Both the position numbers and the translations under genes were made by a program. 64,000 nucleotides of DNA from Tubulanus polymorphus (Eukaryota; Animalia; Nemertea): assembly GCF_964204645.1 (NCBI RefSeq), contig NC_134026.1:28244150-28308149 (forward strand), read 5' to 3'. Below the pieces are notes generated by a model. It was not told the DNA's origin and searched no databases. It saw only the letters and a list, made by a program, of their open reading frames with translations. Below, piece after piece: positions 19,557-46,929 of the stretch; position 1 is the stretch's first letter; each line of letters begins with the position of its first letter.

Positions 19557-22500
19557 ATGGCGGATCTTGGTATGTAGATTCCAAAAATATTTCGAAATTT
19601 TACGCCTGAAAATCTAGCCGGTAAGTTTTGATTCACCTATTTTTAGAAAGGGCAGTCGATAAAGTGAAAAGACGAAAAAGAACAAAAACTGGCGATAAAG
19701 AAAATCACGAAGAAGAAACGATGCCGCTCTGTAAGTTGATATTGGGAGTTTTTTCGAATCGATTCGAAGAAGTTGAAGTTGAACGGGTAGGATTTTCCTG
19801 GGGAATCGACATTTGATTGATCGCATCTGGATGCGTTTAAATTTTGAATTATTGTCTTTTCATACAGCACCACCAAGATCAAAAGAAAGAACCAAAGGAA
19901 GCATAGAAAATCTATTGAAGCAAGCTACTGAAGGCAACATGTAGGCTATGTAGTGTAGTAGTATAGGCTAATAAGGCTAAGCATCCTCAGTCAATTTATC
20001 TAATGTCTATTTATTAATTGATGAGACCTGTTTTTCTGGGATATTTTGTTTACTTTTTGGGGTACATACCTCATTTATGTCTTAACAGAATGCCAAAAAT
20101 CGCGGACAACAACTGAATATCCCATATATTTCCAGTTCTGTACCAATTAGATGGATTGACAAAAAGACTCCTTAAGTCCAGTTGAATGAGAGAGAAAATC
20201 CTCCATTTTGTCAAATTTCTTGGATTTGAACATTGTTACCATGCCTACGCCACCCTGATTTAGTTGTTGAGACCCCACAAGAAAAATAACTTCATTTCGT
20301 AGGCATGGTGACAATGTAAAAATTCAAGAAATTTCACAAAATGGAGGATTTTCTCTCTCATTCAATTGGCCTTAAGGAGTCTTTTTGCCAATCCATCTAA
20401 TTGGTACAGAACTGGAAATATATCGGATATTCAGTTGTTGTCCGCGATTTTTGGCATTCTGTAAAGACATAAATGAGGTATGTACCCCAAAAAGTAAGCA
20501 AAATATCCAAGAAAAACAGGTCTCATCCATTAATAAATAGACATTAGGCCTAGGGTTGGTTAGGTTTTAAAAAAGTTAACATTGATTTTTCCAGTGAAAC
20601 TACAGAAACCACTAAGAAGAAGAAAAAGAAACCAAAACCTAGTCTACAAGTAAGTTCCTTAAAGATCTAGGGTATATTTTTCTTAAATCTTGTTAGGCCT
20701 ATAGCATTTTTTATCTCATTGAACCTCAGGTGAAAAGTTTATCAAGTTGATCATTATTTACTGATTTTTAGAAGCCTGATGATGATGATGATACTGCCCT
20801 TATAAAAAACAAGACCGAAAAGACTCCTAAGAAACGACTGGAAAAATCTAAATTGGACGGATCAGAAAATCCTGCTTTTGAAGGCGAGAGCAGCAAGCCA
20901 GTGAAATCTGCTAAGAAAAAGAAACCAAAAAAAGAAGAACAGTAAGAATCATTTAAAGACTTCAATTAATCGGATTTTTAAGAATAGAATGAATAGTAAG
21001 TTATATTATGATCGTTTGAAATAGGGAAGAAACTAAAACTGAAGATGAAGATGTGTCAAAAGAAACTGCTAAAGGAAAACGTATTCCTCGCAGGTTGGTT
21101 TAGCACAATATGAATCAAAGTCTTAGGGTTCTTATAGATCAGCGAAATCGAGAAAAATCCTGCAATTCCAGATTTATGTCGCCCTTTCTTAAAAATCAGG
21201 GAAAAGTTAGGAAATTTGTGTCTTACTGTAGCCTACTTGCTGGTGACAAAATGCACAGCGATTTTCTTGATAAGAAACAGCCCCCTGAAGATTTAATCGG
21301 GGAATTTTTACTTTAGTCAAGGAAAATCCGATTTGTAAGAACCCTAAAAATGTCCGATCCTGAATATCATCATTATAGGCCTAATACTATTTTGATATAA
21401 TTTCAATCACAGGAAGAAGTCTCCGCAAAGAAGTTCATCGAAGGAAGTTCTTGAGAAAGAAGACGAAGAAGAAGAGAAACCGGTTGCTAAAGTTCGTAAA
21501 AAGAAAAAGAAACAAGCGACAGGTGGAAGTCAGGACGAAGCTGAAAAAGTAATTTATTATTGTTACTGTTAGTCTATCCGCAACATTCAGTATTCTCCAT
21601 GCATCTCATTTATCCTTTGGTGGATAATATTGTGTCTGCTAAAGTAGGCAAGCTTTTGGTGTCGGGGATAATACAGAAAATTAAGCTTGATTTTGGCATA
21701 ATCTGCTATTTTTCTTATTAACTTATTAGTTTAGCCTATAAAGCATTCATTGTTTTAAAGCATTGATAGAATTGACATCATAATGAGGGCAGCAGATATT
21801 TCTAAAAAGTAGTGACATATTCAGAGGGTTAGATATTGTTTATTGAGTGAAAGTTTTACATAATTTGTATGATATAACAGTTAGATGTAAAAGTGAAAGC
21901 TCTTGTGGAGATAATCACTATTTGTTTCTGTTTGATGATATTGTAGGAAGACGAGGTGCAAGATGAAACCATTGAAGCAGATAAAAAGGGAAAGAAACCT
22001 CGGCGTAAAAAGAAAGGTATTTTTCATTCATCGTCTGTTTGAGCAACTTTACCTCATCGGAATAACAAACGCTAGTGATACATGATGTGCAAATAATTTG
22101 TAGATAAAGCGAAAGAGGATGAAACTGCTGAAACAGTAGAAGATGATGTTCCCGAAGAGGAAAAACCACCTCCGATTCCGGATGAAGGCAAAGTTTTGGG
22201 AGTGAATATACATCGGACGGATAAATTGAAGACAGATTTATCAGTGTCGCATCCTCTAGTCAGAGTCCACGTTGTAAATAGCGAGACTGGAACATATTTA
22301 CCTAAACAAAGCAGGTTAGAGTCATCTCTTGTGAAATCTGTTTGTCTAATCTTGGTAAGCGCTCGTCTTATCATATTTTCTTCTATTTTTATCTAGTGGA
22401 CGACCTGTGACGTCGTATTATGAAACTCAAAATGATCACGTTAACTTCGTGTTACCGATGATGAGCCAACCGTACGATTTCAAAAAACACCAGTCAACTA

Positions 22501-25500
22501 TTCCTGTGTGGGAAGAATTAATATTGTTTAATGAGAATTACAACTACTTTTTGAATGAAGAGTCAAATGTTATACTGTTCTTTGAGGTATATTCCAGTGT
22601 CTATATATTCACATCGTCAGGGTTTCTATATATATTTTTTTCTAATTCATGTATATACCTAATACATCTTCGTAGTTGTTGGATTTCTTAACGATGAACC
22701 AAGCGAAAGAACGTTATGATTATGTCGGACAGGATGGAGGATGGCATCATATTGCTTGGGGTTTCCTGAAGGTAAATAGGAAACCCGCTTCACTAAAAGA
22801 TTCTATATATAAATGATTTTGTATGCAGCGATATAGATTTTTACTAAATCACTTTTAGTTGGTCGGTAAAAATGGTAAATTAAACTGTGATAGAAAAGTA
22901 CGTCTGCAGTTGTATGAAGTACCGAGAAGGTTTCGTCCATCTAAGACACAAGTTGAAGTACGTAAAATCTTTTTGCTAAAATTGCTTTTCATAAATGTTA
23001 AATTTTAAGAGCTATGTTCAAAATGTTGAATGATATTTGCAGGTGTTTCAGTGGTGGTTCTATGGTCCTAAGTTTCATTACCCGTCTACGATGTATGTCA
23101 CCGTGAAAGGTCTCATACCTCCTGACACCGTTCAGCCCGCTATCCGATCAATGTTTGCCACTCAAAAGGTTAGTAATCGTATTAATATGACGTTCATTTA
23201 AATCTGAAGATATGTTAGTAATTTGCGCTGTACTTTTTTCTAATAGGAAGCCGGAACCGTCAGTTACAAAGAATTAAAGAAAACTCTAACTGGACGTAGA
23301 AAAGATGGAAGGTTTGTTGAATAATAGAGTTATGAAAATATCTACATATTACTAACTGTATTGAAAAATCTTAATCTAAATTTGTTGTTTTGTTCTGATC
23401 AGAGATGAAGATAAACAACGTACGATATCAAGTTGGGGTCGCCTACCCGGTCAAATGTGTAAAATACCTAACAGTCTGTCTCTATCCCTCCCAGCTGGCA
23501 GGAAGGGTTGCTTTATAATTCGATTTTCTCACGATGGAAGGTAATTTTGACTACTTTCAATGATTTTACAATTTTGAATGACTATGATCTATAGATGAAT
23601 TTTAATGTTCTTCAACTGAATTAATTGTAGATTTTTGGCATGTGGATGTCATGATAAACAAGACTACCCTATTTTAGTGTATGAAGTGAGTGATATAAGA
23701 TCGAATTTGGCGTAAGGAATGACATTTCCATTGAAATTGAGTTAGAGCAAATTTGTTGGCTTTAAGTGAGCGTGGCATTAAAAAGGATTGCGTTATAGCA
23801 GACATTGACTGTATTCTAATTTTCTCTAGATTCCATCTGGTAAACTGCATGGCCAATTTGAAGGCCATTATGGTATCATCTATGATTTGTGTTGGTCAAG
23901 GAAGGACAAGTTTTTACTTTCTTCATCTGGGGATGGCACTTCAAGGTAACGATTGAAAAAAAGTTGTTTTTTGATTTTAAGATATTCGCCTGAACCATTG
24001 AGTTGTCTATATGTAATTCATATTTCAGAGTGTGGACAATAGGTAATTACAAGGGAAACGCTGACAAAGTTCTTCCACATCCAGCATTCGTATATACAGC
24101 AAAATATCATCCTAGAGTTCGTACAGTTATTGTTACCGGTGGATATGATTGCGTAATCAGAATCTGGGATGTCAAATCAGATGGCAACCATGGCCAGGTA
24201 GGTGTAATAATACAGGTCTGCGCATTTTGCCCTATTGCATTTTGAATTCCGAGAATACCGGCAATTGTGAATTAGATCAGTTCATTTTCAATATTTCAAG
24301 TCTGGCAAACTAGGCTATGAGGTCACATACACAATCTCTATAGGGTCCTAGGGGCTCGATCTTAAGATTGAAAATAAGATTCTGTTATTCTTAATGTTGT
24401 AAATTGCAGCTTGTTCAAGAACTAGACGAACATCTAGGATATATCAGTACGCTGTGTTTCGATGAGGATGGTCAGAAGCTGTATTCAGGTGACAGCACGG
24501 GAAGGATCAGCGTTTGGAATGTGTATGTTACTGAACAACCTACTAGAAAAGGCTTCCTTAAAAACTGGAGTAAATTCAAAGATATCGAAGAAAATGAACT
24601 AAAGGTAATTAAAGGGTTCTAAGATGGAGGATAAACAAAATCTTTGGTATCTTTCTTTAAGCTCCACAAATTTATTATAACACATCTATTTTTCAGGGCT
24701 CTGTAATTAATAATTTACAAGTTTATAACGGAGATCGTAGATTGTTGATTCATACGCGAGATAATGTGATCAGAACAATGGATCTGAGAGTGTAAGATAA
24801 TGTTTAAATGAGACCCACGAGTTCTATAACAACAGAGTTACCTTTTTCAGCTCTTTATCTTGTGGTCTCATTATAGTTATGCGGTCATGCAGCGTTATAT
24901 GGGTGCTTTGAATTTCCGTGAGCAAATAAGAAGTTGTGTGACTCCATGCGGTAGTTTTGTAATCTCCGGTAGTGAGGATGATTGTGCTTATGTATGGAAT
25001 ACTGAAACAGGTACCGTGTCTGTCTAAACCTACAGTAACTATTTGTATCCAATGTTATTCTGCTGCTAGAAACCTCTATCAACTCTGTAAACTCCGGTAG
25101 ACTTTAAGCGCTTTTGGATCAAGCTCTCTGTTCAGTTCATTCCTATAAACTCAGCAAACTACACATTACAATCTTACCTGTCCCTCAAACAATCTCTCTT
25201 CCGCTACCAATCAATGGGTTTAGCAAAGTTCAGGACACATCTAAAGACCCTCCTATTCATAGGATTCCTGCGCTATATAAATCTATTTTTCATATGAATA
25301 AAACATTGGTTTTTACAGGAGATCAAGTGGCAATTTTCTCTGAATTGAAATATAAACACACAGTATCAGACAGCGACTTCCATCCACACGATCACATGGT
25401 GGCATTCTGTTCATTCGGCGATAATCATCCAGTCCTCGTCTATACGTTCGATCCAAAAGGTTTGTCTTTAAACCTGGATCCAAAATTTGTGTTAAGATTT

Positions 25501-28500
25501 GACGCTACAGTTAAAACATCTGAAATGAACCGATGTTTACCTCTACAGTCAAACTGTTGAACTGGATCCTGCACATTTTTGTTCAATGTTTAACGTATCA
25601 TCGAGATGAAGAATGTATGATGACATTCGAATTTTTTTTCAGTTGCTCGAATGGAAGCAGGTTTAGAAGTGACATCATTAGATGGTCGACCTGGTTCACC
25701 TTCGATGAAACCAGTTACTATTCGTGAAGATCCATTGTAAGTATTCATACAACACTGTTTTAATCAAATCTAATACAATTACTCATTAGTGATTACAACA
25801 TTTATTCATGTTTGAAGGGCGAACAATTGGATGAAAACGGATGCACTCAGTGATGATTTCGCAACCACTCAAACAGTACGATTTGGAAAAGCCGTGAAAA
25901 AACTGAATACTGTTCTGGTGAGTTGAATAGTAAATCAAACATGGAAGTCAATTACTATGTTCTAGTAAACAATTTGCCCATCTTCCTAACTTTTACCTTA
26001 TTACGAATTATTTTACATTTGCAGACTGCTCAGGTTTGTAAATATTAGAACAAATACTTCAATTAATCCCTAGTTATAGTCACAGAGCAGTTGTCTCTAA
26101 AGCTTAATGACAGACTTGTTGAATTTCATCGACAAATCGATTTTTGTCGGAATTTTGCATAGTGTTCCTAGGGATGCAATGCACATTTTGTTTTCGATGA
26201 ATCAATTCGAGCTTATCTAACATGTTTGATATGATTTTTAAGTGGTTTACCGATGAAATTTGTCCAGTCCGTCAAAAGCTTTAGAATTGATTCTGTAATG
26301 AATAATATGTTCATTTGAATTGATTCTTCTTTCTTTTCTGGCTTTTCACCCTCAATTTTCAAACTATGTATGATAGATAAAGATTATTTGATACTATTCT
26401 TACGATTATATGAATTTCAGCATTCGCCAGTGTATGAATTGGTGAGATTGTTTGTTTGATATTAACATGTTTATTGGCATTTTCTGTTAGTTCTGATTGG
26501 TTGGGTTTCTAACTGATTATCAGGGTTTTGCATGGCACATTCATGGTGGAATCGGGTAGTCTGAGATTGGTCAAATATGGCACATGTTTAGAGCATGTAG
26601 CTTTTGATTGAATATCAATGAATATTCTATTCACATTCATTCAATTTCATGCATTAATTCATTCCTTCCAAGAGAAGTTGTTTATTTGCAGCATCACTTA
26701 CTAACTCAAATGGTTCTTTGTTTCTAAATACAACTGTCGGTCTATGTTTCCTCTTATGTTTGCGCCGTAATTTTGATGACTAATTTTTGTATTGGTAAAT
26801 GATAACATTCACTTATCAATTCAAGTAAGAAGAGAACCGCATGTATTATTTATCTATCCATCATCATCATGAATTGTGAATGTACGTGTGGTTTTAAAAG
26901 GGTCAAATTGTTTTTGACAGAATGTAGTGTCAGCGTTTCAAGAAGGGGTCACTCCTAGAGCTGTTTCACCTGACCATGGCATGTATCCAACTATCGAGCC
27001 GACTATGATGACTTGGGGATCAACATTCGACTACACTCGAAGCGCGGTAAGTAGACCCGTCATTTCTCTAATTCCAGTATGAACAGCTAGTAGAAATAAA
27101 ACAGTCTGAATTTTTTCACAACTAATAATTTATTCAAAAATATCAAAAATTTTGAAAAAAAATTGCATTAATAAAATTTGTGCATTAAATTGGAGGGTTT
27201 CTAGTTAACGCATTGTTTCATTATGACTGGAAGATTGGTATCTTATATTTTGAAACGCACAAAAATATCACAAATTTGAATCACATTGGGATAAAAATAA
27301 ATACACTTGTACATTCAATTGGACGATTTAGACTTAAAGCATTGCTTTTGAATGTACCTTTGAATTTCATTAAGTAGTTACTTTGAATAGAGATTCAAAA
27401 ATAGATTAAGTATAGTTTTTACAACTATTAACAGTACGTACATGGCTGTATTTTACATGACAACATTCATCTTAGCTAAAAAACAAATATTGACACAAGG
27501 CAAGACTCTATATCAAGACTTTTTGAATAATTCTATTCCCTGAGCTTAACGCTAACATTCTGACTTCTTCCCACAACATTCGATAATTTCCACTAAATCA
27601 TCCAGCCTCTATCACAGTTCCTTAATGTAGTCATCATTCCATAGTTAGAAGACAATCATTTCCTACAAGTCTATCATTCCATAGTTAGAAGACAATCATT
27701 TCCTACAAATCTATCATTCCATAGTTAGAAGACAATCTTAATCATTTCCTACAAGTCTATCATTCCATAGTTAGAAGACAATCATTTCCTACAAATCTAT
27801 CATTCCATAGTTAGAAGACAATCATTTCCTACAAATCTATCATTCCATAGTTAGAAGACAATCATTTCCTACAAGTCTATCATTCCATAGTTAGAAGACA
27901 ATCATTTCCTACAAATCTATCATTCCTGTTTCATTCCTATCATTTCCTGTGCTTGTTATAATTGACCATTTTCGTCAGAAAACAATCATTTCCTACAAAT
28001 CTATCATTCAATAGTTGGAATACAATCATTTTTTACAAGTCTCATTCCTTTAAAGAAGACCTTATTTTCCAAGAACGTAAATTCTAAACTAACCATATGT
28101 ACATTAGTTCTATAACACCACGTAGGTTGTAAGAATATTCATTTAACTGCCTTAATTGACCATACAATCTTTTCCTTGTGGTTCTTTTTTCTTTCTATCC
28201 GAACGGATCCAATATATTATGTATACTGCTGATATCACCAAAAATATAATGAATGCGAGTAATGGAATCAAATTGAGATAATTAACTTCACCTTGTTGAT
28301 CTTTTGGAATACGGTATGAATATGACTTCCCTGAAACTTGTCTTCCATAATCAGGCCCTCTTGGTACATACACATCTGAAAAATACATCCAAATCCATTT
28401 TAAGAAATTTTTGAATTTTACCTCATTTCCCTTCTAGCGCACAAATATTCTACTACCTGTATGATTGAATACTGTTGTTACATCGAGGCATTTTTTCTGA

Positions 28501-31500
28501 TCCATTAGCTCACAACAAAGCGTTATATTTTCTGTTACATTCGACACGACGATTCTAACTTTGTTCATATCTTTGCTACAGCTTACAATTTCAGCTGAGT
28601 AACCGGAGTCTGGGGACACATCGCATCCATATGAGATCTGTTTCTCATCTTCATATTCTGTTCTTGGATGGTATATGATGATCTTGTGCTTGTTATAATT
28701 GACCGATGTTGTTTGACTACATTCTCCGTGTATCTTATTGTTATATTTAATCACACGGAGAGGTGATATCGTCCATGTTAACGCATCTGAAATGAAGCTT
28801 CCTTATTGTATTGAACATGTACAAGATGTATACTACCAGGGTTCTTACTGATCAGGAAATCGGGGAATTCCGGATCTATTTTCCTGCAGAGAAAATCAGG
28901 GAAATCGGACTCATTTCCTGATAATCACGGAAAAATCAAGAAATTTTTGATGTCTTGCTGGTGATGAGTGGCACAAGGAACCCTCTTGATAACAAACGCC
29001 CCCTCCTGGGCATATCTTAATTCAATCAGAGAATTTTTGGTCGAGGGTCAGGGAAATATCAGGGAATTTTTTACTCCCCGATCTTTTAGAACCCTGTTTA
29101 CAATATACGCAGTGCTGACATCGTAAACTACATACCTATACTGAATGTCGTTTCTTCATGTAGTCCTCCATACGAGCAAATATACAAACCGGCATCTTCT
29201 ACAGTGAATCTATTTTTAACGACATCTATTGCGTAAGGGTTCTTACGACAATTTGATCGCCATGATTTGTCAATGGCGTTGCATCCTCGTGCTATGATTT
29301 GTTCTCTTTTTCTCAGCCACACTTCTATATGAGGCTTATGAAGCCTTTTCGGGACTACACACTCTATTCGTACACTGCTCCCATCTTTAACTAGGTTAGG
29401 TTTGCCCATAGGATACATCACCATTCTTGATTCTATACAATGATCGAGCGAAAATGGTCGTATTAGTGAATAGAGTTGGCACATTTGGCAGAGAGCCATA
29501 AAAAATCTAGGACATTGAATGTTTTACATTTGAATTGGTATAAAAGATAATGTATTTATAACTTACATACCTTCATGGTTCCTAGAATAACATTTCACTA
29601 TAATAGCCATAAGTAGAAAACCAAGGATCGAGATGATTCTTTTTTGGTTATACATGTATATCATGTCATCCGGTGCCGGCATGGTTGCTTCCCTGTTGAA
29701 ATCTCTAGCAACGGACTGCGTCACTCCTTAGCAACGACGTTACGCAATACAATGAAATATTGCAGCCGTTACACAGTCTTCAAAAAGACGTTCAAATCTA
29801 AATGATAAAGCGTTTGTTACTATCAGATAATGTACATAATTCAACGTGTATAAGATTTGATGAATATAACACATAGGATCCCAATACTTACAGTATATTG
29901 AAGGAGACCTCGTGTAGGACGTCCTGTTTGTTCGATGTCGCCGGGCCTTTTGACAATGCTGCAGTTGTACACCTACGCACTGGGTTTTTCCCCGTTGGTT
30001 TTTCCAAGGACTTCCCCTGTAGCTATTATAATCCTTCCCAGGGTACAAAAAGTATGTTAATTGTATGGGGGCTTTTTAAAGAAGATTTGTAGTATGAATA
30101 AGCTATTCAAGAAACCAATATGATAAAAAAACATACGTATGATAAGATAAATATGTTCACCACGTTTGAGTGTGGTTATCGTACCAACATACATATGTAG
30201 TAGTTGTACATAAATGATTCTATAATGAAGTGTCAATATTTTTCTACTGTTAGAGTCCACAGCCAGGGATGTTTTCTCCTCATGCGCCGACCAATCTGAA
30301 CACATCGATTCAACAGCAACAATTCTCATCACAGTATGAATACTTCAAACACAGTTCTGGTTGGAGACCAGGAGTCCAACAAGGTAGGATTGCACCACAA
30401 TTGAAGTGATATGATTTGATTAAGCTTTTTTTTTTTTATCAAAATGGAACTAAGAGTAAGATTTGATTATTTCAGCTGGGCGCAGCTCATCACCGTATTT
30501 GGGTCAACAGCCAAGTATTACCCTCGATGCTGTAAGTAGAATTCACCTCCATGTTTCGAAGTTATATCGAATTTAATTACATGTGTATATTTCGTACATG
30601 TGTATATTTTGTATTTTCAACCATGGTTTTTTACTCGTTGCAGTCCCAGGGTCGTCCACAGTTCAGTTTCCAAGGTGTTAAAGAATCAGTGACCGACCTA
30701 AAACAGGTAAGTGATGTGTAAGAAGATGGTCTTTTGTTGCACTACTTGGCACCTAGTCACTGGAAATTCAATGAAATATTTTTTTGTGTTATGATTATGT
30801 TTAAGGTTTGCACTTACTTAATTATATTACAACTTCATAAATATAGTTTAGAACACGTGTGATTTTATTCACCTACTTATAATTCTGGAACTGTTTCCTT
30901 AGTTTTGGGTTAGATTGTGAGTCAGAATAAGTTGATTAAGTGTCATTAGACGCAAGTTTTAACCTACAACTATAGAACTGGACAGTAATGTAAGCTACAA
31001 AATATTTCTGTAGCCAGTTGCTCAAAAAGTAGTTAGAGTTAACCAGTGGATAGTTGACATAGTGACAGTTAAAACATCATTGTTACCATAGTATCTATCT
31101 GAAGGTTAACTCTTGCCTTTTTTTACCAACTGGGCTGTGCTGGAATAAAGTCTTTCAGTTATTGTTTATCACTGATACTAACCACACGATAATTCACTAT
31201 TTACAGTTACGGTTGCATACACCAACTCAAAAGGTAATTTCACCTCATATATGGTTATTCATTAATTATGTACACTGATCACGTAATGCTCACGCAAATG
31301 GGGATTACAATTTGGTATTTTGAGCATACATACTTCATTGACAGTCTTTAACCTGATATGAATGCATTGTCTTATCTTTAATGAAGGTTTGTTATAATTT
31401 TGGTACTGGCTTCATTCTGTAGGTGGTAGCACTGTACGATTATCAAGCGGCGAGATCAGATGAGTTGACACTGATGAGGGGAGATGTTATCAATGTACTC

Positions 31501-32353
31501 TACAAAGACAGTGATAATTGGTGGATGGGTGAATTATCCTCGGGACAACAGGGATTTTTCCCTTCAAATTACGTCGCCGAACAAGGTATGAACGTGTGGA
31601 CTATCAATTGATTCTGAAATTTCCGATTGTAAACATTTTAAGCGTAATTTGAATGGAAAAATTTATTTCTTTGATTTATATTTATCTAAGCTGCTGGTGC
31701 TGTTAGTGATGATGAAAGCAATGATGATACTGTTGATGTAAAGGAGTCTCGTGCGGTCAGAGCAAAGGTAGCTAATCTGTAGGATTCTAGTTGTTTCAGT
31801 TGTAGATAGTTCATGTTTCACACATCTTTGATATGATATCGATTGTCTTTCAGACTACTGCGGTTATATCAGATTCGGGGGAGCTGAAATTTGTATCAGA
31901 AAGTGAGGAAACTCCCAAGAAAAAGAATGTTCGGTAAGTAAATCTAACGTAATGAATTATTACAAGATTATTCGAAAGAAGTTAACTCTTAATTCATAGT
32001 AAAACTGGTCTATAAACCTAGCCCTGTATGTCCATTGATTAAAAACTCAATCCATGTTCGACGTTTCAGCTATATCCTAAATTATCTTCATGTATTCCTT
32101 AAGATGACTATTAAGATATAGATGAAACTAACTGTCTTGAAATAAACGACCAGCTCAAGGAAACTTTGTTGACTGTATTTGTCATTCTTGTATTTTATAT
32201 TAGTGTATTGCATCTACAGTATTCTGTCTTCTTTTATTCAGGAGCAGCAGTAAAAATCGTCGAGGATCTCGAGAAATGTTATTAGAAAGTGCGAGCAGTT
32301 TGTCCGGTCACCAACGGCGATCCTCTCGGAAAACTCAGGAAACAGTAGCGTAA
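19557..32353 (+). CDS. AHI1: Jouberin (AHI1): K/E-rich N-terminus, C2-like domain, WD40 repeats, SH3; more than 30 exons
   Basis: Motifs [37 protein letters not shown]...[13 protein letters not shown]40 repeats ([25 protein letters not shown]) and SH3 [16 protein letters not shown]...GFFPSNYV. The ORF starts MADLERAV and ends ...QETVA*. Confidence 0.9.
20000..20547. mobile_element. Long foldback/MITE-like inverted repeat in an AHI1 intron
   Basis: Two arms of about 250 bp (20000-20249 and 20298-20547) are near-perfect reverse complements around a 48-bp spacer, with TA at both ends. Confidence 0.85.
21124..21346. mobile_element. MITE-like element (family C)
   Basis: TIR agggttctta...taagaaccct and internal aaatc(a/g)ggga motifs. 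A related copy lies at 28837-29096. Confidence 0.65.
25474..25571. mobile_element. Degenerate family A MITE copy
   Basis: Shares ttgtg.gttaagattt...gttaaaacat.tgaaatgaac and the aactgg.tcctg end with 651-760. Confidence 0.55.
26095..26285. mobile_element. MITE-like inverted repeat
   Basis: tctaaagctt...gac.gact...aatttcatcg is mirrored by cgatgaaattt...agtc.gtc..aagctttaga. Confidence 0.55.
27633..27927. repeat. 40-bp minisatellite, about 7 copies
   Basis: Unit atcattccatagttagaagacaatcatttcctacaa(a/g)tct. One copy has a 7-bp insertion, and decayed copies extend to about 28045. Confidence 0.95.
28152..29682 (-). CDS. Nested type I membrane protein with Ig-like domain(s), 4 exons: 29682-29571, 29432-29136, 28786-28457, 28375-28152
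   Basis: Hydrophobic signal ([14 protein letters not shown]), an Ig domain (VRIEC...EVWLR...[10 protein letters not shown]), a second Cys-containing beta domain, a TM segment ([22 protein letters not shown]) and a basic short tail. All introns are phase 1, as is typical of Ig genes. It lies within AHI1 intron 27047-30253. Confidence 0.8.
28837..29096. mobile_element. Family C MITE copy in an intron of the nested gene
   Basis: cagggttctta...ttagaaccctg termini with aaatc(a/g)ggga internal motifs. Confidence 0.65.
31013..31135. mobile_element. Family B MITE copy (reverse orientation)
   Basis: Matches the reverse complement of 2523-2655 (gttagagttaaccagtggatagttga...cattgttac). Confidence 0.7.
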
Positions 32354-33804
32354 AACAGAACCAGTAGTTGAAACAATCATTTTACTGTTATAATACTTCA
32401 ATAGTAGGAAACCACTTCTCTGTTCGCGGTGAATCAAGGAAGTGACAAGCGCGAGGTGTAACAAACGATAGTTGTTTGCGGTGGCATGCAATTGTGACAA
32501 ACACTCGATGTAAACAATTGCATGCCTGTAACAGTAAATTCAATGGTGCCAATGATTATATGTTCGTAGAGATTTTAGTTTCATGTTTTTGTAATATAGA
32601 TGAATATTATTTAGTTATATATTTGAATTTTCTTTTAGACCTGTAGGGTATACAATTGTTTTAAAATGAAATTCTAAAGAAGCATTCTGATTTTATTTAT
32701 TTTCCTAAATAAATTGCCTGATTTAGCCAAAATATGTCAAAACTTTTCAGTGAAAATAATACCTCTGACTCAATTCGGTGAAACATTTCCAGTCCTAACA
32801 CCATCAAACCATGAATCCAGAGTCCATGATCAAGTGAAGTACAACTGCCTATAACTTGCTGTTAGCAATGACAGTTTTTTTTAGATATTCCAACGTTAAA
32901 CACCTTACTTGTAAATAGTTCATCATCATAGAGATGTTATTTATTGATATTTTTCTAAAGATGTTTATCAAACGTTTTAAATCATGACTTACAGTTGTTC
33001 AAATGAATATCTTAAAAATTTTTCCCATGATAAACAAAAAAGATGATCCCCATGAGTTAAAAAGCCCAAAATTCAAAATATCCTCCCATGTTTGTCCGTC
33101 CATTAAATGTGCATTTGTGCAGTTGAATTTATATCGTAATGAAGAAAGTATAAATTTGCTTCATAAACTATTAATTGACAATATATTTGTCTTTCTGCAT
33201 GTGCCTGTACTTAATAATATTGAATTCTTAGAGATATTTCTAGGAAATATGAAGTATTAGAATTTTGCTACTTATAACCATTTGTAAAACGAATACAAAT
33301 TTGCAAGAAAATAAATAGACCTTTTTGAATTATAGATGGAAACTTTTATTTGTTTAATTTGTTGCCGCATTCTAGGCAGTCTTTCATCTTGTCAGGAAAA
33401 CCAGAGGATTCAATGGAGAATATAATTGGTGTGGCTGCCATTCGCTTTCTTAAACAAAACACATCTTATAGAGGCTGACGAGGTCTGACTCCAACAACGT
33501 AACTGTCCTGCGAATGAATGATAAAGATATATCGACTGAAAACCACGGGTTGGTCTCGGGAATCTGGACCCCCTACCTTCACATCGAGGTCCCTTTTCGT
33601 CAAGACAGAGATTGAGACCAAAAACCTATAAACTTGACACTCGACATTACGTTAGGATCGATTTCTACAATACTTGAAGTTCACAAAACGGCAAACATTC
33701 AGATGCGTGTCAGAAAATATATCCAAATCATGAAATTATTTTCCTAATTTGATGAATAGGTAACGGAATTCTGAATATGTTTGTCGCGACCAGCGTTTGC
33801 GTCA

Positions 33805-33893
33805 ATTGGTCGTACGGTGGTGTCAAACACGTTTGCATTGGTCGTACGGTGGTGTCAAACACGTTTGCATTGGTCGTACGGTGGTGTCAAACA
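33805..33893 (+). repeat. 32-bp tandem repeat (about 2.8 copies), each beginning with ATTGG (reverse CCAAT box)
   Basis: attggtcgtacggtggtgtcaaacacgtttgc starts at 33805, 33837 and 33869 (partial). Confidence 0.9.
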
Positions 33894-34004: not shown

Positions 34005-34039
34005 TATAAAACGCTTGAGCACTGACTGTAGTCATCAGT
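34005..34039 (+). promoter_or_regulatory. TATA box plus Initiator upstream of the hairpin cluster
   Basis: TATAAAA at 34005-34011 and TCAGT (Inr, A at 34037) about 32 bp downstream, close to canonical spacing. Confidence 0.55.
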
Positions 34040-34127
34040 AACATCGCATCATCTTACACGACTAACGGAGGCTCCCGGTGCATTTAACTCTAAAACTAAT
34101 GGAAGGATAAGAAATGTCGTGATCTTA

Positions 34128-34208
34128 GTTTCTAGAATTATTTGGCATTAGTGGGTAGTCATAATTTTAACACGACTACGCATTGAATGTCAAAACTATT
34201 TTGGAAAT
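34128..34208 (+). ncRNA. Candidate pre-miRNA hairpin 1
   Basis: 5' arm tttggcattagtgggtagtc, 13-nt loop, 3' arm gactacgcattgaatgtcaaa, extended lower stem, CAAC at 34213. Confidence 0.7.
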
Positions 34209-34259
34209 ATCGCAACGTCGAGTTATATATGCAAGGATGACAGACGAAGGAGGGAATAT

Positions 34260-34338
34260 GTTTTCTAGAAGTATTTGGCATTAGTGGGTAGTCAAAATTA
34301 TAGACTATTCATTTATTGCCATAATTCTCCTGGAAATA
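34260..34338 (+). ncRNA. Candidate pre-miRNA hairpin 2
   Basis: 5' arm tttggcattagtgggtagtc (identical to hairpin 1), 9-nt loop, 3' arm gactattcatttattgccata, basal UG, CGAC at 34341. Confidence 0.7.
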
Positions 34339-34531
34339 CCCGACATCGAGGATGTTGAATATCAATTGCAATCTACATCGGTATTGAAAGGTTATATATG
34401 ATTTTTCAAGATTTGATCCGGTAGCATAAGTTAGACAGTCTTGTGTAAATGGACTATTACCAGTGTGGAAATGATTATCAATACAAGATACGAGATTGCG
34501 AAAAAGCACCGGGGATTATGATCACGAACTT

Positions 34532-34615
34532 GGTTTTCAGAATGTTTTGGCATGTAAGTGGATAGTCTTAGCTACTATCGACTATTCACCTTGTGTCCGA
34601 ATCATTTTGTAAGCC
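34532..34615 (+). ncRNA. Candidate pre-miRNA hairpin 4
   Basis: 5' arm tttggcatgtaagtggatagtc, 12-nt loop, 3' arm gactattcaccttgtgtccgaa, basal UG. Confidence 0.68.
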
Positions 34616-34675
34616 ATAATCATGCAGTTATAGTACTAGATACTTGAATACTAAGAATCGTTGCGTAGAAATGAC

Positions 34676-34756
34676 AATTTTCCAAATTATTTGGCATTTG
34701 TGGATAGTCCGAACTTCACCGACTACTCACAAAACGTCAGAATTATTTGGAAAATT
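34676..34756 (+). ncRNA. Candidate pre-miRNA hairpin 5
   Basis: 5' arm tttggcatttgtggatagtc, 11-nt loop, 3' arm gactactcacaaaacgtcaga, lower stem aattttccaaat/atttggaaaatt, CAAC at 34762. Confidence 0.7.
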
Positions 34757-34828
34757 CTAATCAACACAGAGAAATTGTCGCGTATATTGTAATTTTCAGG
34801 GGGTCTAGATGCAAACTAATTATTCATC

Positions 34829-34912
34829 ATGTTCTAAAATGATTTGGCAAATAGTGGATAGTCATCCGTGTACTAGACTATTCACCAAGTGTCAAATTCA
34901 TTTTGGGAATAT
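34829..34912 (+). ncRNA. Candidate pre-miRNA hairpin 6
   Basis: 5' arm tttggcaaatagtggatagtc, 12-nt loop containing GUGU, 3' arm gactattcaccaagtgtcaaa, basal UG, CCTC at 34917. Confidence 0.72.
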
Positions 34913-35070
34913 AGAACCTCACATTGAGAAAAAGTTGTATTTTGCATGAAAGAAAAGACCGTTTGATAGATGTTGCTATGAAGTTACCATTGGTATTTTA
35001 AAAGGATGGCGTTATAACCGCTTCGGATGTTTGGATTCAGAATTCATGACAAGGATATCTATGTGATTTA

Positions 35071-35151
35071 GTTTTCAAGGTAATTTGGCATTAATGGGCA
35101 GTCTTTTCATTGTATTTGACTACTCGTTAGTGTCATAGTTACTTCGGAAAT
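35071..35151 (+). ncRNA. Candidate pre-miRNA hairpin 7
   Basis: 5' arm tttggcattaatgggcagtc, 14-nt loop with UGU, 3' arm gactactcgttagtgtcata, CAGC at 35157. Confidence 0.68.
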
Positions 35152-36659
35152 ATTTACAGCACATCTTCTGATAGGTACCTCCTATTTCAGTCTCATAAAA
35201 CAAATCCACAAACATCGATTTGAATATAAAATGTATATTTAATTATAATTGAATTATAATCATATGTATATTATATATATATATATATAATATAATCATA
35301 TATGTTGGTCTATCAGCAGCCATGGAATGCTATTGTATCAAATAAATAAATGCAACATAATGTTGTACTGACAAAATTATCAAATATTTCCTCTGGGAAA
35401 TGATTAAAAGCTCACAGAAATTGTCTTGAATCTTTTCAAAATACTCAATATTTTAAACACCTCCAACCATTCTGCAGAGCTCAGCACATTTATATGTTAA
35501 CGCATGACATGGAACTGGCAAACGTTTTTTAATCATTACCTTATTGGAATGTAAACATTATCATTGTATTGATCTTCTAAAAACCAAATTAAACTAATAG
35601 TTAGTAACGTATATTCCTCAAAAAGATTTTGCATGGCCGACATTGATAATTATTATCTAAAGATTTCGAATGACCAATCTACCCTTCAAAATAACAATAT
35701 ATGCTATCATCATAGGCGACATAAAAAGTGAATTTGCCTCAGGCCTGCCCGAGATAACACTGAATCTGATCAGTGGTTACAGTTCCAATGATGTGAAACT
35801 AGCATCGAGTAGCAACTAACACAGATTTATGGCTTGAGAGATGAAAGTATACTAATGCAATACTCTGAACACTATAACTAGTTTAAGCACTAAGCTAAGG
35901 ATTTTGCAAAAATAAAAACAAAACCGGAAAAAAACGTGTTTAAAATACAATTTCGAGACATGATGACACCTACTTTATAAGTTACAGGTAATTCATATAC
36001 AACGTACGAATACTTTGGAAGCTAATTGAATTCACATCATACAATACGTATATAAATATCTATGTACACGGTAACTTCTTTTGATTCACAAAAAAACTTG
36101 TTATTTTACGCATTAGGCGCAGCACCCCATTAACATGGAAGCGTGCAGGTTCCAATATGTTTTGTATAATTTTGGTTTGAACTAATATTTCAAGCAATTC
36201 ATTGTTAATTTCTGATTAAGAGTATTGATGATTCATTTCGAGTAAAGCACCTGAAGTTGTTGGTGTTTTACGGGCGAGACAGTTTTGCTGCTAAGTTGTA
36301 CACATGTCATGGCAAAAAGTAGCACTTTACACCTGAGATTTATCGTTATACTTTGTGCAATGTATATATAATTTCAAGATACTTGTGATATTTGAGTAAA
36401 AATTGTCATTTGAATTTTCAAGTACCGGTATTAACAACCAGCTACTCTCATCAATAATTCTTACATTCATGTAGCAACATTTTTCGCGGTATTCCCTTTA
36501 AAGTTAACCCAAATACGTAATCAAAATTTAATGAAGAATTGCGAATTATCATCAGGAAGACAAGAAAATATCCTGAAAAATACATGGTCCAAAACCGAAA
36601 TGGTTTTGTATATTGATCAATAATCATGTCGATAATAATTGTATACAACATACAATCTA

Positions 36660-37176: not shown

Positions 37177-39313
37177 CTAGTCGTCATAACCCTCCGAGTA
37201 GCCATCGTCGGACAGTCGCTCTCGTTTAACTCCCGCCATTCCTTCCGCAGTCGCGAGAGATTGTCCAGATAGTGCTAAAATAGCCTGATTCACAGCCGCT
37301 ACCTCAACTGCCAGAGATAGTTGTTGATCATCGGTTGGAATGGTGTTGCCTCGTGATTTGGAATTCGGAGCCATCGCGTCTGCGTGGTTCGTTGAATCAG
37401 TATGGTTAATGCTACCGTTGCTGTTATCATTCGATTGGTTACTAATGGTATTAGGATGATGCACGGGATTCAGCCCGACAGCACTCAGTAACCCGACCGA
37501 ATTATGGTTATCAGATCTCGGAGGTCGACCTCGCGACGGTCTCATTGTGGCTAAGAAATTCTCTAAACCCTCTGAAAAATAGAAACACATTGAATACTGT
37601 ATCAATTCAAACAAATTGAGTAAAAGCTGCGCGGATGTTACGAAAATTACCGCAGTTTCCATCTTTAGCGATTTTCTTCAGCTCTTTTCTCTTGTTAGCA
37701 AACCAGTTAGTGACGACATGAACGTTAACGCGTTCCCTTTCCGGAAGTACTTTTCCTGAATGAAAATGTACGAATGTATGAATAGATGAATTTATTTTTC
37801 ATTGTATCAATGATAATACAAATATAAGCGAAATAAACAATATTCTACAAGTTTGTATCACAATGGCGGTACATTTTTTGGCCAAGCCCCCTAGAACAAT
37901 GAGAATGTAAAATGAAAGGGGAAAAAATAATGAAGAAGAGATAACAACATAGATGCGCATACTCAATAAAGGCCCTATGCACATGCACGTATGTATCTAT
38001 ACAGGGATGAATTTGGAAATGGAAATACCAGAGTAATTGATCATGATGGTTAATACACGGTAGTGGGAGATTACTGTAAGATCGCAATATCAGGTCCCAG
38101 GTGACTGACAAAAAGGTTATCAATGTCGAAATAATTTACCATCAACTTCCATAACACAGTTACATTCTCTAGCGATGTCCTCTCTTTGTTCGAATGATGG
38201 GTAGCTGCACTCTTTGAATTTTCGTTCGAGAACCTCCAGATGGGCTTGCCGGAAAACAAAACGCTCTCGTCGAGGGGTGAAAACGATGTCTCCTTCATTG
38301 GTTGTTGTAGCAACGATTGACTGCATTTTAGCGGTGGGATAGTTAACTGTCATGGCTTCGAATGAAAAAAAAATAATCTCGAATCTAGAACATTTCGAAT
38401 ATCAAAGAACTGTGAAACATATTACCACATAGTTTCATAACATACCTAGAGTGTTAGGGTGTTTTAGGGCTGCCAGATACCATTTATAGATAGCACGCTT
38501 ACTTTTATCCGAGATATCTTGATAATCTCCTCTCAGATAACGGCTCACATATGATTGACTTAATCCTATAAATTTACATTAAACGACATTTAACTTTTAA
38601 TCAAAGTGTATTGTAAATGTAGCAACATTGCTGAGAGACCAATAGGCCTGTACTTACCACACATGTAAGCGAGTTGATGCTGTTTGATGCTGTGTTTAAC
38701 AACAAAATCTTTTACAATATCAAAGCAAGATTGTTCTCCCTGACTGAAATTCAAGAAAAAAATCAGATAAATAGCTTTTTGTTAGGGTCGGTCTTGACAT
38801 GCATATGACGCAATTTCAAACTTACAGTGAAAACTCTGTGACCTCATTTTCATCAGCTTGCTCTTCCGGTGGAACATTGCCCGGCAACAGGTATTCTCCG
38901 GCATCAAATACTGATTCATAAGAACGTTTTCTGTTGCTGAGAACCGCATTGTTCTGATGAGAATTGGAATGTCCGTTTAGTATCTGCGCGTTGGCAATAT
39001 TGGGAAGCAAATTAGCGACAGTCATTTGAGACACGCTTGTCAGAGAAGCTTGAGACAGTGGAAGAGCGGCATTGTTTGTACCAGCCGAACGAGGCGTCTG
39101 CGAAGTATTACTCGATATCCGCGGCAAGCCGTTCTGTTGATGAAGAGGAACTGCCGGTTTATTTTGAGTGGTGATCGGCACGTTGTACGTCTGTCCTAGT
39201 TCTCGGTCGAGTCGCGATAATGAGTCGAAAGCTTGGATTATCTGTTCCTTAGTGATTCCGCTGTTGCGCAACCGGCGCAACAATTCAATTTGTTCGATAG
39301 TGAATAAACTCAT
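37177..39313 (-). CDS. HMBOX1: HNF-class homeobox protein (HMBOX1-like), 6 coding exons: about 39313-38826, 38743-38658, 38565-38446, 38355-38139, 37755-37651, 37571-37177
   Basis: N-terminal FTIEQIELLRRLRNSGITKEQI, POU-like HNF-P1 domain (GLSQSYVSRYL...IYKWY) and an extended homeodomain RRERFVFR...YPSFEQREDIARECN...VVTNWFANKRKE. Confidence 0.85.
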
Positions 39314-41484
39314 TGTGACCGAGATCTGTTACATTATCCTGAAAAATATAGGAACAACTTTTTAAAGGTTAAAAGTTAAATAGATTGGCCTACCGGTAGG
39401 CCTATAACTATAATACAGAAAATCTCGCACTCTTTTCAACATTTCGACTAGTGCAAAAATAGCCATCTTCAGAAATACTAAGTTTTTATGCTTTTTATTT
39501 CTGAAGATGACTAATAGGATATAGTCGAAAGTAAATCATTAACTTTCTGAACTCATTTTCCTTTATTTGAGTGTGGGATTTTCGAATTATTATGTCAATA
39601 TTTCTAAAAAATATGAGATCACTGAAGGCTCAAAGCAATCTAATAATAGTTTGGGAAATAATGTTTAAATCATTGAGTTAGAGTGAGAAAAAATCTAGGC
39701 CAATGAATCATTTAATATTAATTAATGTAAATTGCAAATAGGTTTAGAATGGAGTCAATTCATTGACTTCATAAAGAAGTAAAAAGTTAATCGCTCAGTT
39801 CAACTGGTGATTAACTATCATCACTGGTAATAATCAGCATTGTATTGTTGACAGCTAATAACGAATTGAGTTGATAATAATCAAAAAATTGTCGATTGTT
39901 TATTAATTCCTATAATTAATCTTAAAAAATGGTATTTGTGAACTAATATGACTTTCTTACTTCAAATTTTTAGAATTCTTCTAGACTATAGGAATAATTA
40001 ATATTATACAAATATTATCAAATAATTCAAAACAGAATTAAGGCGCGATTTTGATATCTTTTTAATTTAATTCATATTTTTAGAAATAATTTTCTATGTT
40101 TTAGTTTATGTTGATTCTGATAGAGGGCAGCACGATTCAATGGCTTATTCTAATTATCTAAGGATAACAACAACACATTATATCAGCGGCCACATGGCTT
40201 TGTAGCGTCTGCTAAACCAACTGGTCAGTTCTGACTATAGATCAATTGCCCAATTTAATGATAAAAACAAGTCAAAGTTGCCATAGCTGGACAAAGCAAG
40301 TGTATAACCGTATATTGAAAGCTTCCCTCTTGACAGCTGTCAATTCAGAAAACTTTATTACTAAATTAGTGGGTTTAAATCCTTCAAGATCACGGAAATC
40401 GAATCGAAAAAAGAGCTGCAAAACTCAAAGATTATCTCAAGTACATAAGCCGGCTTTTTTGGAAGAGTGTCGAGTTAGTAGGCTACGGTTTTCGATAAAG
40501 AAATGGTTAATAATACATTAGCACATCCGCCATATTGGGTAATTAAGTTATGATACTGGTTTTGGTAGCGTCAGAAAATGATTAAAATAAGCGCTCGAAA
40601 TGTGAACTGAATATGAAATTACATTTCATACGACATCACGTCACATAAACAAAACGTATCAACACATACAACACGACTATAATCGAGAAAATTTGCATTA
40701 AAATTTACAATATATTTAAAAATAAAAATCACCTACCCTACTCGTCTTTGCTAACGAAAATATCTTGCGCGTGGAGGAGAATGCAATAGCCATTAATTGG
40801 TTTTGATTGATAGCAGTCAAATGCAGTTAAATTCTAAAGATTGCAAAGATATCGTCATTTCATGTTAATACTATCACAAAAGTAAATTATATTGTAAGAC
40901 AATATGGAGTTATCAATAAAACATACACATTGTAAATAGATTTAGACTTTTTGAATCGACTGAGGGTGAAGAAAAAAATTGTCGGAGGGAGAAGAATAGA
41001 ATAGCTGCGCGCACCTGCTACGCGGTAACCAGGAAGTAAATGTGTTGTTTTCAACCAGAAAAGGTGAATTTTTGAATAAAATTAAGAGTAATTACCTGAT
41101 TTACAATGAGTCATTAGATCGCATCGACTAATTACCACTAAATGAAGTCGAATGAATGAAGTTATGGTACGGTTTCTGTATATTTGAGCGTTAAAACGAA
41201 CAAATAGATCGATGAAAGTTGGCTATTTTGTAGTCTGTGTGTCAGCTGTTTACCCCTTGCTCTGAAAAGGTTTGCCCCAAATTACAATATTTAGCTGCGT
41301 CCCGTTAATGAATTTCATTGATTTCATTATTACAGCTCCAAGTAAGGGTTACCCGCTATGATGCAATAAATGTCAGAACAGTTTTGAGGGAATGAATTGA
41401 TTGTAAACTAGGCTTACCCGGCCATTGTGTTTGATCGCGTCCAATTTCTGATTTTAGGTGATGTTTATGATTTCTTGAAATATA

Positions 41485-44400: not shown

Positions 44401-46929
44401 TGTTGACATTGATTTTATGTGAATAATTAGAATTCCACATCAGTCATTCTGAGTTTAGTGCAATCAGTATGATGGTCGATGCTTGACGCGCCATGTGAAA
44501 TTTAAAATAGCTATAAAATGGCCAGTCTAGTATTACTTGCCGGTTTGAATTTGTTCTACTGCACAAAGATCATTATCGTTGCATTATTATGAAGGTATTA
44601 GTCACAGCGCATGGAAATTTGTGTTCATAATCTAATTTATAAATTTAATCCCCTACAGCGGAATGAATCAGGGGATGCAAGCATTGGTTGTAGCAATCAT
44701 TAAAAGTAATTCTGGTTGATTAGTTTTAACCCTTTTATATCTAAGATTTTTTTATGCAGCTCTAACGCGACGCTGTAATTGCGTTGTAGTTATTTGACGA
44801 TGATATTTGTTTGGTATATCTTATGCATTCAATATTTGATAAAAATAAAGTCTTCACCATCATTTCATTGAGACAATTTCAACTGTAATGAGTAATGATG
44901 AATCATTTCATTTGTTATTCATTAGTTTTTCTCTGATGTTTTTGTATTTCTAGGTGATTGCGTAGCTATTGACTTCGAAACAAAAATGTACAACGAAAGT
45001 ATGGATGTTTTAGAACATTATGTGCGGCCTATGAAAGTGATGCCCGGGGTCGTTCTCGAACAGGCTTATTTGAACAAGATGGCTGATGGTTTACAGCACT
45101 TCGGTACTTTAGCAAATGGTGAGAATCCTACAATAATCATCAAATTTAGCTTCACAAATTCAGTCTATTGAGAGTCTAAAATGTAGAATAAGCCTAGGGC
45201 TGAAAGACAACTTTTCTCTTTCATTTTTATCGACGAAACGAGCTAAGAATGACAATCTATGGATCAGTCTTCATACCCTATAGGCACACACATGAAACCT
45301 CGAGAGCCCTTTATGAATGTGCTTTGTTTTCTGTATGAATCAGAATTATAGCTTTGATTTAGAATCTATTTCAAGATTCGTTCTCAAGGGAAAGATCTTC
45401 TCTCGGTGTTTTATCGAACATATCAATAGTAGCCTGCCTCATAAACGCGACTCAGCATTACTGCGCATAATCCCGAATAACGTTCTCTTCTTTATGAGAA
45501 TTTATGGTTAAATTGGCATTTAGTCAATTTATGTTCGAATAGAAATTTTTGCTCGGTTGAATTCTTCGATATGAAATACTCTTGAGTCGTCTCCCGCATA
45601 AACGCTGCCGCCGCCGCATATTATAATTATTAATATTGTTAGACTGATGAGTTTTCAATCATTCATCGCGTACAGTTTTAATTCTCAGTATTTCGAGGCC
45701 GATGTATGGAGCAACGCTGTACAAAAATTAATGGGAATCACTGTTGACTAATCTTTAATTATTATGCCTTAGCATAATTCTTCCGTGATAGAGCTGGTTA
45801 TCGTCGAGTTATCGATTTTGTTGGCGCTAGGCATCATATTTTCCTTGTCCCGTTCGCTGTCAGTCTGCGCGCACAACGCAGAATATCATCATCTATCTAG
45901 GCGTAGTTAACAACTCTATCAAACGAAGGCCATTTTGAATAAAAATTCGTTCGTGGCATTGTTCGTATGATCGAGCCGTGAATTCACGTCTTTGAAAATC
46001 GACTCATGAATAATGCAAAAAAGATTTTGTCCCCGTGCGTTTTTCTAATACGTGTATTCACTTGATTTTCTGTAGCTCGGTTCCCTGTTATCTATTGAGC
46101 TTCATTTTAACTTGTTTACGGATGATTATACTTAATATCGAAGCATCCTCACACGCTGAGTAATAAAATATATGACTCTATAGTATTTAAAGGTTTATCG
46201 CTTTTATCGATGATTCAAATAAACGATTAACATCAATTCATGCGGTATTTATTTCGAATTCGATGCTACATTATTTATGATTAGATGCTGTAAGGTTTAA
46301 TGTAAATAATGGTTCCATAAAATTAGCTCGAAGAATGGAAAATGTTAGTCATATACGGGGCAGTTTAGAGACGCTGGATTAATTCACTATCGTTATCAAA
46401 TATTTATTTTGCAGAGACAAAGAGATTCGCGTTTCCAGATGAGAATGAACCGAAAGTATTTATCAGTTATCAGTGGGATGTTCAATCTAAAGTTGACGAT
46501 ATTCGTCATATGCTAGAATCGAATGGATTCCCGTGTTGGGCGGATATCAGCACAAAAATGACTCGCAGTCACAGCAGTATCAGTAATCGCAACGGCGCCA
46601 CCTCGGTAGCTGAATCTACGTCGGAAACTTTACAGGGACAAATTCAGAGAATTATGCGAGCGTCTTCGGTTGTTTTGTGTTGTATAACGCCGAAATATAT
46701 GCAAAGCGATAACTCTTCGAAAGATCTGGCGCTCGCCGATTCGCTTCGTAAACCGATCGTTCCCGTGATGTTGCGATACATCGCGTGGCCACCAGATGGC
46801 AACTCGTCGAAAGTGCGGAAGATCTTGTCGCGCTGTGCGCACGTCGATTTAAGCAATGATAAACTCTATAAAATGAACATGCGTAAAGTTTTAGAAGCCG
46901 TTTACAAAGTTATCAATCAGAAGAAATGA
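41485..46929 (+). CDS. TIR-SAM-TIR-TIR domain protein, 4 exons: 41485-42699, 43791-44019, 44954-45118, 46415-46929
   Basis: TIR1 IYISYS...AAILFLSDSYFTCPVSIYE; SAM WLATDLQDWLFALGIKEFY...VDGFLLMSLTDHEM...LGI; TIR2 VYIVYDP...ILVLMTDAAVNSPFVFHE; TIR3 VFISYQWD...VVLCCITPKYMQSDNSSKD. The splice phases are consistent. Confidence 0.82.

Follow-up and report, generated by a model that had tools for sequence, protein, structure and literature searches.

Six related stem-loops on the + strand of the Tubulanus polymorphus (Nemertea) genome are, with good probability, tandem duplicates of a known MIR-96 family gene, the paralogue Mir-96-P1b (miR-96b), as judged from sequence comparison, rather than members of a new microRNA family. 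They span positions 34128-35151 of the window, that is, of the whole 64,000-nt (64-kb) stretch of contig NC_134026.1 analysed here, and were delimited by sequence reading and by a repeat search of that window. The initial annotation of this DNA had proposed an apparently new family, which is contradicted by the match of the arms to miR-96b/Mir-96-P1b over the whole mature sequence, at 15-19 of 22 positions against references identical to published mature sequences. Hairpins 1, 2, 4, 5, 6, and 7 are the intact copies, and place 3 is held by a decayed one. In the following lines, z compares each fold with 300 dinucleotide shuffles per hairpin, bits refer to R1, a structure (covariance) model built from five P1b-type hairpins from outside Tubulanus, and L003 is a metagenome locus described below.

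34128..34208, + strand: hairpin 1, Mir-96-P1b-like stem-loop; predicted 5p guide 34140-34161, predicted 3p end 34197 (z -6.3; 29.4 bits, R1)
34262..34336, + strand: hairpin 2; predicted 5p guide 34273-34294, the same sequence as the guide of hairpin 1 (z -3.8; 29.7 bits, R1)
34405..34475, + strand: likely decayed seventh copy, seed lost and no hairpin (GACTATT at 34452, in register with the ~140-nt period)
34531..34616, + strand: hairpin 4; predicted 5p guide from 34545, with a 2-nt insertion (z -6.8; 20.1 bits, R1)
34676..34756, + strand: hairpin 5; predicted 5p guide 34689-34710 (19/22 against L003; CNNC at +18)
34832..34908, + strand: hairpin 6; predicted 5p guide 34842-34863 (z -5.7; 19/22 against the reference identical to Platynereis P1bx)
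35071..35151, + strand: hairpin 7, with the most diverged guide; predicted 5p guide 35083-35104 (z -6.8; 23.6 bits, R1)

Folding, coordinates, and motifs bore out the six hairpins of about 80 nt that the initial annotation had described, with TTTGGCA, AGTC, and GACTA as their landmarks and loops of 9-14 nt. The + strand energies of hairpins 1, 2, 4, 5, 6, and 7 were -30.3, -26.7, -34.5, -27.2, -31.5, and -31.0 kcal/mol, with z from -3.8 to -6.8 in all six and 0-1 of the 300 shuffles equally stable. On the minus strand, five hairpins folded clearly more weakly (-10.7 to -24.0 kcal/mol) and hairpin 5 folded equally well (-28.6 versus -27.2 kcal/mol on the + strand); the strand-specific pairing claimed earlier thus holds for five copies and fails for one. 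AGTC ends the 5' arm and GACTA begins the 3' arm, with loops of 13, 9, 12, 11, 12, and 14 nt between them, and each hairpin contains 28-35 pairs, 3-8 of which are G-U. The predicted precursors are unbranched and 54-60 nt long, and their arm, loop, and precursor sizes lie within the ranges given for hairpins in MirGeneDB 3.0 (arms of 20-27 nt, loops of at least 8 nt, and precursors near 60 nt; PMC11701709). In an alignment of the six copies, a consensus structure of 31 pairs was paired in 169 of 186 cells (90.9%), and two-sided changes occurred in 9 of the 31 pairs compared with 3.4 in shuffles (1 of 500 shuffles as high), a count that is supportive and not a probability, the structure having been built from the same six sequences.

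Conservation among the copies was uneven, as the initial annotation had stated. The 5p arms have a mean pairwise identity of 84%, compared with 65% in the 3p arms and 67% in each lower-stem strand, and 20 of 21 linker pairs were at chance level (one pair with p<0.05). This order of divergence, in which the mature arm is best kept, followed by the star and then the flanks while pairing is retained, is the one described by the divergence criterion of MirGeneDB. The TTTGGCA motif occurs 15 times in the window, with six occurrences inside the ~1-kb cluster stretch, one per hairpin 5' arm, and no further copy of the hairpin unit was found within the 64 kb. Successive units start 133, 272 (across the remnant), 144, 153, and 241 nt apart, and the unit of hairpin 2 is 78% identical to that of hairpin 1 over 94 nt. 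A loose 60% alignment of 34121-34506 with 34526-34934 hints at duplication of a three-unit block, although the ~140-nt period explains it equally well.

The family assignment starts from published miR-96b sequences. Mir-96-P1b is described as a seed-shifted P1 paralogue with the seed UUUGGCA (PMC12257675), and bgl-miR-96b-5p is listed among the mature sequences of Biomphalaria, with 0 mismatches to Lottia (lgi) miR-96b (PMC7328434). The same source on Platynereis reports two genes, Mir-96-P1bx and P1by, within 1800 nt (mature read counts 102,221 and 38,021), one more P1 gene with its start shifted one base downstream (932,676 reads), and a single listed P1b in oyster and in limpet (PMC12257675); the UUUGGCA 7-mer appears six times in its table of annotated Platynereis microRNAs, the number explained by the three Mir-96-P1 rows. 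The first 16 bases of miR-96b showed one mismatch to hairpin 5, the copy nearest molluscan miR-96b, and three to hairpins 1 and 2, and four of the five window matches to the miR-96b 16-mer pattern fell in the cluster (0.79 expected window-wide). Moreover, metagenomes were scanned with a pattern that allowed for both versions and was drawn in part from the present hairpins, and four loci were returned. L003 has one hairpin, the first 22 nt of which equal the first 22 nt of bgl-miR-96b-5p, and L001 (2813-3074, +) and L002 (2971-3225, -), on apparently animal contigs, carry two P1b-type hairpins each, 174 and 168 nt apart. The upstream hairpins of L001 and L002, which lay outside the target of the pattern, equal the Platynereis P1bx mature sequence exactly. 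No third P1b-type copy was found in L001-L003, and L004, a bacterial chance match that does not fold, was excluded from the models.

Against the upstream hairpin of L001, the arms of hairpins 1, 2, 4, 5, 6, and 7 matched at 18, 18, 18, 18, 19, and 16 of 22 positions, and against L003 at 17, 17, 17, 19, 18, and 15 of 22. The match covers the whole mature arm and agrees in arm, register, and distance from the base and the loop. Alignment scores were 7-15 for P1b-type references, 6-12 for Platynereis P1, and 2-6 for Platynereis P2/P3. In a Markov null of 7.68 million positions, a score of 13 (four copies against L001 upstream) and a score of 15 (hairpin 5 against L003) were each reached once, and the observed best was equalled by shuffled queries in 1 and 0 of 3000 attempts; the null rate is about 1e-7 per position for four copies, with hairpins 4 and 7 weaker. 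Hairpin 7 matched P1b-type references at 15-17 of 22 positions, and hairpin 1 matched the reference identical to Platynereis P1bx at 18 of 22. With R1, all six + strand copies scored 17.6-29.7 bits and the next locus in the window 16.7 bits, and the top nine rows of a sequence-only model all fell in the cluster.

Several observations weigh against a Mir-96-P1b origin. In the sequence-only model, hairpins 4 and 7 missed significance on the + strand (E 0.99 and 1.4); its top row was the minus strand of hairpin 6, a match that a stem so close to a palindrome would be expected to give. The pattern taken partly from these very hairpins had supplied three of the five training hairpins, so that R1 and the sequence-only model lean in favour of the assignment; the mature sequences of the two references identical to published ones are free of this bias. 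In addition, the C that every compared P1b reference has at position 9 is absent from all six copies, as is one base of the mid-arm, and these common losses indicate that the six probably go back to a single derived copy. Rfam gave no match at the gathering threshold for the cluster region, and none of its 12 matches at E<=10 was a MIR-96 relative, the best being mir-186 and mir-929. This blank says little, since only one of the five outside P1b-type hairpins, used as a control, matched a MIR-96 relative (mir-1271, E 0.005, far below gathering) and Rfam missed the other four.

A new lineage-specific family that resembles MIR-96 by chance or convergence would agree with the Rfam result and with the differences from all P1b references that the six copies have in common, and hairpin 7 matches the arm of the Rfam mir-929 consensus at 15 of 22 positions, about equal to its match to P1b. 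Such a family is nevertheless very improbable in view of the full-arm match on the right arm and at the right distances, with its low null rate, and MirGeneDB defines families by descent and not by seed (PMC11701709). Identity with mir-929 itself, an ungapped match with a different seed, was rejected as less parsimonious. A miR-279-like 3p product, considered for the 3' arms that open with GACUA, was also set aside: bgl-miR-279-3p, compared by eye, agrees only over the first 5-6 bases, and the 3p arms are the less conserved ones. To our knowledge, mir-929 is confined to insects.

The hairpins could also represent a non-microRNA repeat, such as a tandem miniature inverted-repeat transposable element (MITE), palindromic DNA, or decayed and unprocessed pseudogene copies. 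In favour, a family of MITE-like palindromes in the window (2516-2655 and 31000-31113) has a 10-mer in common with hairpins 4 and 6, both strands of hairpin 5 fold, and one copy has already decayed. However, the unit occurs nowhere else in the 64 kb, so that the MITE alternative raised in the initial annotation found no dispersed copy, and five of the six folds are strand-biased, with G-U pairs favouring one strand. Conservation is also far stronger in the 5p arm than in the 3p arm, the loops, or the linkers, with an unchanging seed block and a retained CNNC spacing. A DNA palindrome is unlikely because such arm and strand asymmetries are not expected of one, and a repeat of any of these kinds appears highly doubtful. 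As a separate observation, the two MITE-like palindromes align with each other at 70-84%, and a long near-perfect palindrome at 655-756 (-49.7 kcal/mol) has an arm that looks alike by eye.

Canonical Microprocessor substrates have a basal UG at about -14, an apical UGUG, and a CNNC about 17-18 nt downstream, motifs that support a microRNA call but are not needed for it. In the cluster, a CNNC lies 16-18 nt past the predicted 3p end in five of the six hairpins, at +16 in hairpin 1, +18 in hairpins 2, 5, and 6, and +17 in hairpin 7, against a background of 8.4% per 3-nt window, the copies not being independent; the same motif occurs at +16-18 in both L001 hairpins. The initial annotation had listed the CNNC after the same five hairpins, and its other motifs fared less evenly. 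The basal UG that it placed in hairpins 2, 4, and 6 is at -14 in hairpins 2 and 4 (the latter lacking a CNNC) and at -12 in hairpin 6, and the UGU of hairpins 6 and 7 is present in mid-loop, and none of the six loops has UGU/GUG at its 5' edge. Together with folding, covariation, and conservation, the CNNC supports the earlier view of the stretch as a probable polycistronic cluster of paralogous pre-microRNA hairpins with a 5p mature arm.

Expression, arm choice, and the 5' ends of the guides are predictions from these features. If the guide begins one base ahead of TTTGGCA, its positions 2-8 (UUUGGCA) are the same in all six copies and positions 1 and 9 vary, with U at position 9 in 5/6; the predicted star starts with C in 4/6. 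C at the star start is a bias stated in MirGeneDB 3.0, with whose propensities the predicted precursor features agree (PMC11701709). An A is retained at the base before TTTGGCA in five of the six copies, and homology favours this start, with the seed UUUGGCA in all six, since the read-supported P1b homologues start at A. The initial annotation was right about a miR-96/182-like resemblance, whereas its seeds, UUGGCAU and UUGGCAA, presuppose a start one base later. This later cut is a sub-case of the homology reading, in which Drosha would cut MIR-96-derived copies one base further in, giving U-start guides with the seeds UUGGCAU (five copies) and UUGGCAA (one copy) and a retargeted family. The read-supported Platynereis Mir-96-P1 starts at U and ends in an AUAGUC motif as the copies do here, with arms matching at 15-19 of 23 positions; U at position 1 is a general bias (PMC11701709); and the changed base, position 9 in the old register, would become seed position 8 with a substitution common to all six. 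The A start of the sequenced P1b homologues and the A kept in most copies nevertheless argue against a later cut, and the UG at -14 (two copies) and the CNNC at 16-18 nt (5/6) fit the A start, whereas a U start fits the CNNC in 3/6; the lower stem, 11-14 nt below the predicted cut, fits either register. On balance, a later start is unlikely, if worth keeping in mind. Its fuller form, a six-fold amplified MIR-96 cut one base later at the position mutated in every copy, and hence a new-seed subfamily (UUGGCAU, UUGGCAA) with different targets and possibly co-transcribed with AHI1, is rather improbable.

The decayed copy was described in the initial annotation as a seventh member, and this stands in part. 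Its GACTATT keeps the register, and its 3' half faintly resembles hairpins 4 and 6 (p 0.003 and 0.010, two of six comparisons, uncorrected), but 34405-34475 folded no better than shuffles (z +0.75) and was not recovered at E<5 by a profile of the six copies. The segment is probably the remnant of a seventh copy, on sequence grounds. At hairpin 6, which scored 17.6 bits on the + and 20.1 bits on the minus strand with R1, the antisense (34830-34910, -) also folds (z -3.3) and, with the MIR-96 models, scores slightly above the sense; a microRNA from the antisense strand of this hairpin is possible.

Compared with known systems, the Tubulanus copies are closest to Mir-96-P1b/miR-96b of Biomphalaria and Lottia, which likewise has a 5p mature arm, the seed UUUGGCA, and first eight bases equal to those of five of the six copies, with similar precursor size and geometry. 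They differ in the six intact copies, the change of C to U or A at position 9, and the diverged lower stems and loops. Similar to Tubulanus, Platynereis (P1bx/P1by), L001, and L002 have tandem P1b-type hairpins on one strand, with the 168-174-nt spacing of L001 and L002 close to the 133-241 nt seen here; these clusters have two copies, both with C9, whereas Tubulanus has six without it. In a tree of 11 hairpins, one long branch parts the Tubulanus copies from the outside hairpins, which suggests an independent local expansion in Tubulanus, and support among the six is weak (19-64%), too low for this tree to order their duplications. Mir-96-P2 and -P3 (miR-182/183/263 types) and the ancestral MIR-96 cluster have the family core beside the seed in common with the copies, at the low scores given above, and the window yielded no P2/P3 hairpin: P2/P3-like matches near 12050, 15400, 30774, and 32531 do not form pre-microRNA folds that place the match on an arm.

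Duplication of a single paralogue in tandem has been described before (PMC12257675; PMC4238352). The insect mir-252b tandem copies, in which local duplication kept the seed and the rest diverged, belong to another family and phylum and are a precedent for the mode only (PMC4238352); text matches to 'mir-96' in that paper are mir-968/969 and were discarded. Neither this cluster nor nemertean MIR-96 was the subject of any paper found in our literature search, and a gastrotrich supplement had no match. MirGeneDB 3.0 covers the nemertean Lineus longissimus (PMC11701709), and a similar nemertean expansion may already be catalogued there. The family, the P1b paralogue, two-copy clusters, and the tandem mode of expansion are already known; the copy number and a further phylum for P1b are what is notable.

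The cluster lies between two genes, and the features of its transcription context are as follows.

19643..32353, + strand: upstream neighbour, AHI1/jouberin-like gene with WD40 and SH3 domains (exons of the jouberin-like protein P0121 placed by tblastn; Pfam)
35341..35346, + strand: candidate polyadenylation signal AATAAA of the putative primary transcript, the first AATAAA past the cluster, 190 nt after hairpin 7
37180..39328, - strand: downstream neighbour, convergent HNF1/HMBOX1-type homeobox gene (HNF-1_N and Homeodomain Pfam matches; ORF limits approximate)

The alignment of the T. polymorphus jouberin-like protein P0121 covers 19643-32350, with 98% identity for an AHI1 exon, and the stop codon (32351-32353) is on the same strand as the cluster, 1.78 kb upstream of hairpin 1, in agreement with the earlier placement of the hairpins downstream of AHI1. 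Candidate poly(A) signals lie at 32708, 33102, and 33310, between AHI1 and the cluster. Given the AHI1 stop and these signals upstream and the convergent homeobox gene downstream, the cluster is most simply intergenic, and its closeness to AHI1 may be coincidental. No exact match to the P1b seed site was found within the AHI1 3' region, and no similarity to AHI1 was found in the flanks of up to 3 kb of L001-L003, which are too short to decide synteny.

Other elements were observed around these genes. A 32-nt unit repeated 2.8 times with 100% matches (33805-33893) stands about 230 nt before hairpin 1, in the putative promoter region, and unassigned hairpins occur shortly past the AHI1 stop (32465-32547, +) and just upstream of the homeobox ORFs (39444-39527, -). 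Within AHI1 introns are nested minus-strand ORFs encoding an Ig-like domain and a hydrophobic segment (28155-30075), a 40-nt minisatellite of about 10 copies (27629-28042), and an inverted repeat at 20000-20547 (90% over 557 nt), which, like that at 58960-59109 (74% over 156 nt), is probably a transposon relic. A minus-strand gene, which we take from its translation to be phosphatidylinositol synthase, is duplicated at 3762-5084 and 17545-19360 with 81-90% identity, and a gene with TIR and SAM domains (41479-46926, +) lies past the homeobox gene. The window also includes a delta-tubulin exon, 100% identical to a T. polymorphus protein, with the next best match at 64% in Lineus; with the 98% match of the AHI1 exon, this makes it very likely that the window comes from that palaeonemertean.

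Taken as a Mir-96-P1b expansion, the cluster would be carried by one + strand primary transcript, a polycistron with six Drosha substrates, that may start at its own promoter upstream of 34100 or by read-through from AHI1 and would end near the AATAAA at 35341. Drosha would crop the hairpins, Dicer would cut the 54-60-nt precursors, and Argonaute would load the 5p arm, whose first base would be the one ahead of TTTGGCA. The output would be six 5p guides with one known seed, UUUGGCA, and thus a higher dose, while positions 9-22 would be free to drift and differences there may tune 3' pairing. Parts of the literature tie the MIR-96 family to sense organs (PMC2885982, PMC5963458, PMC3259013), and oysters of different shell colours are reported to differ in miR-96b expression, with tyrosinases predicted as targets (PMC7678851); by analogy drawn solely from other animals, the likely site of action may be ciliated sensory cells.

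MIR-96 is a bilaterian-wide family, and the expansion is of an ordinary kind, involving no new mechanism or family, yet it exceeds the one or two copies present in the compared molluscs and annelids. Supplement 4 of the Platynereis study leaves it open whether P1b had a single origin in lophotrochozoans or independent origins in molluscs and in Platynereis (PMC12257675). A nemertean P1b-type cluster, together with the two-copy clusters of L001 and L002, would argue for one early origin of P1b, and the six-copy cluster would offer a natural case for the effects of dose amplification, and of drift beside the seed, on a conserved microRNA.

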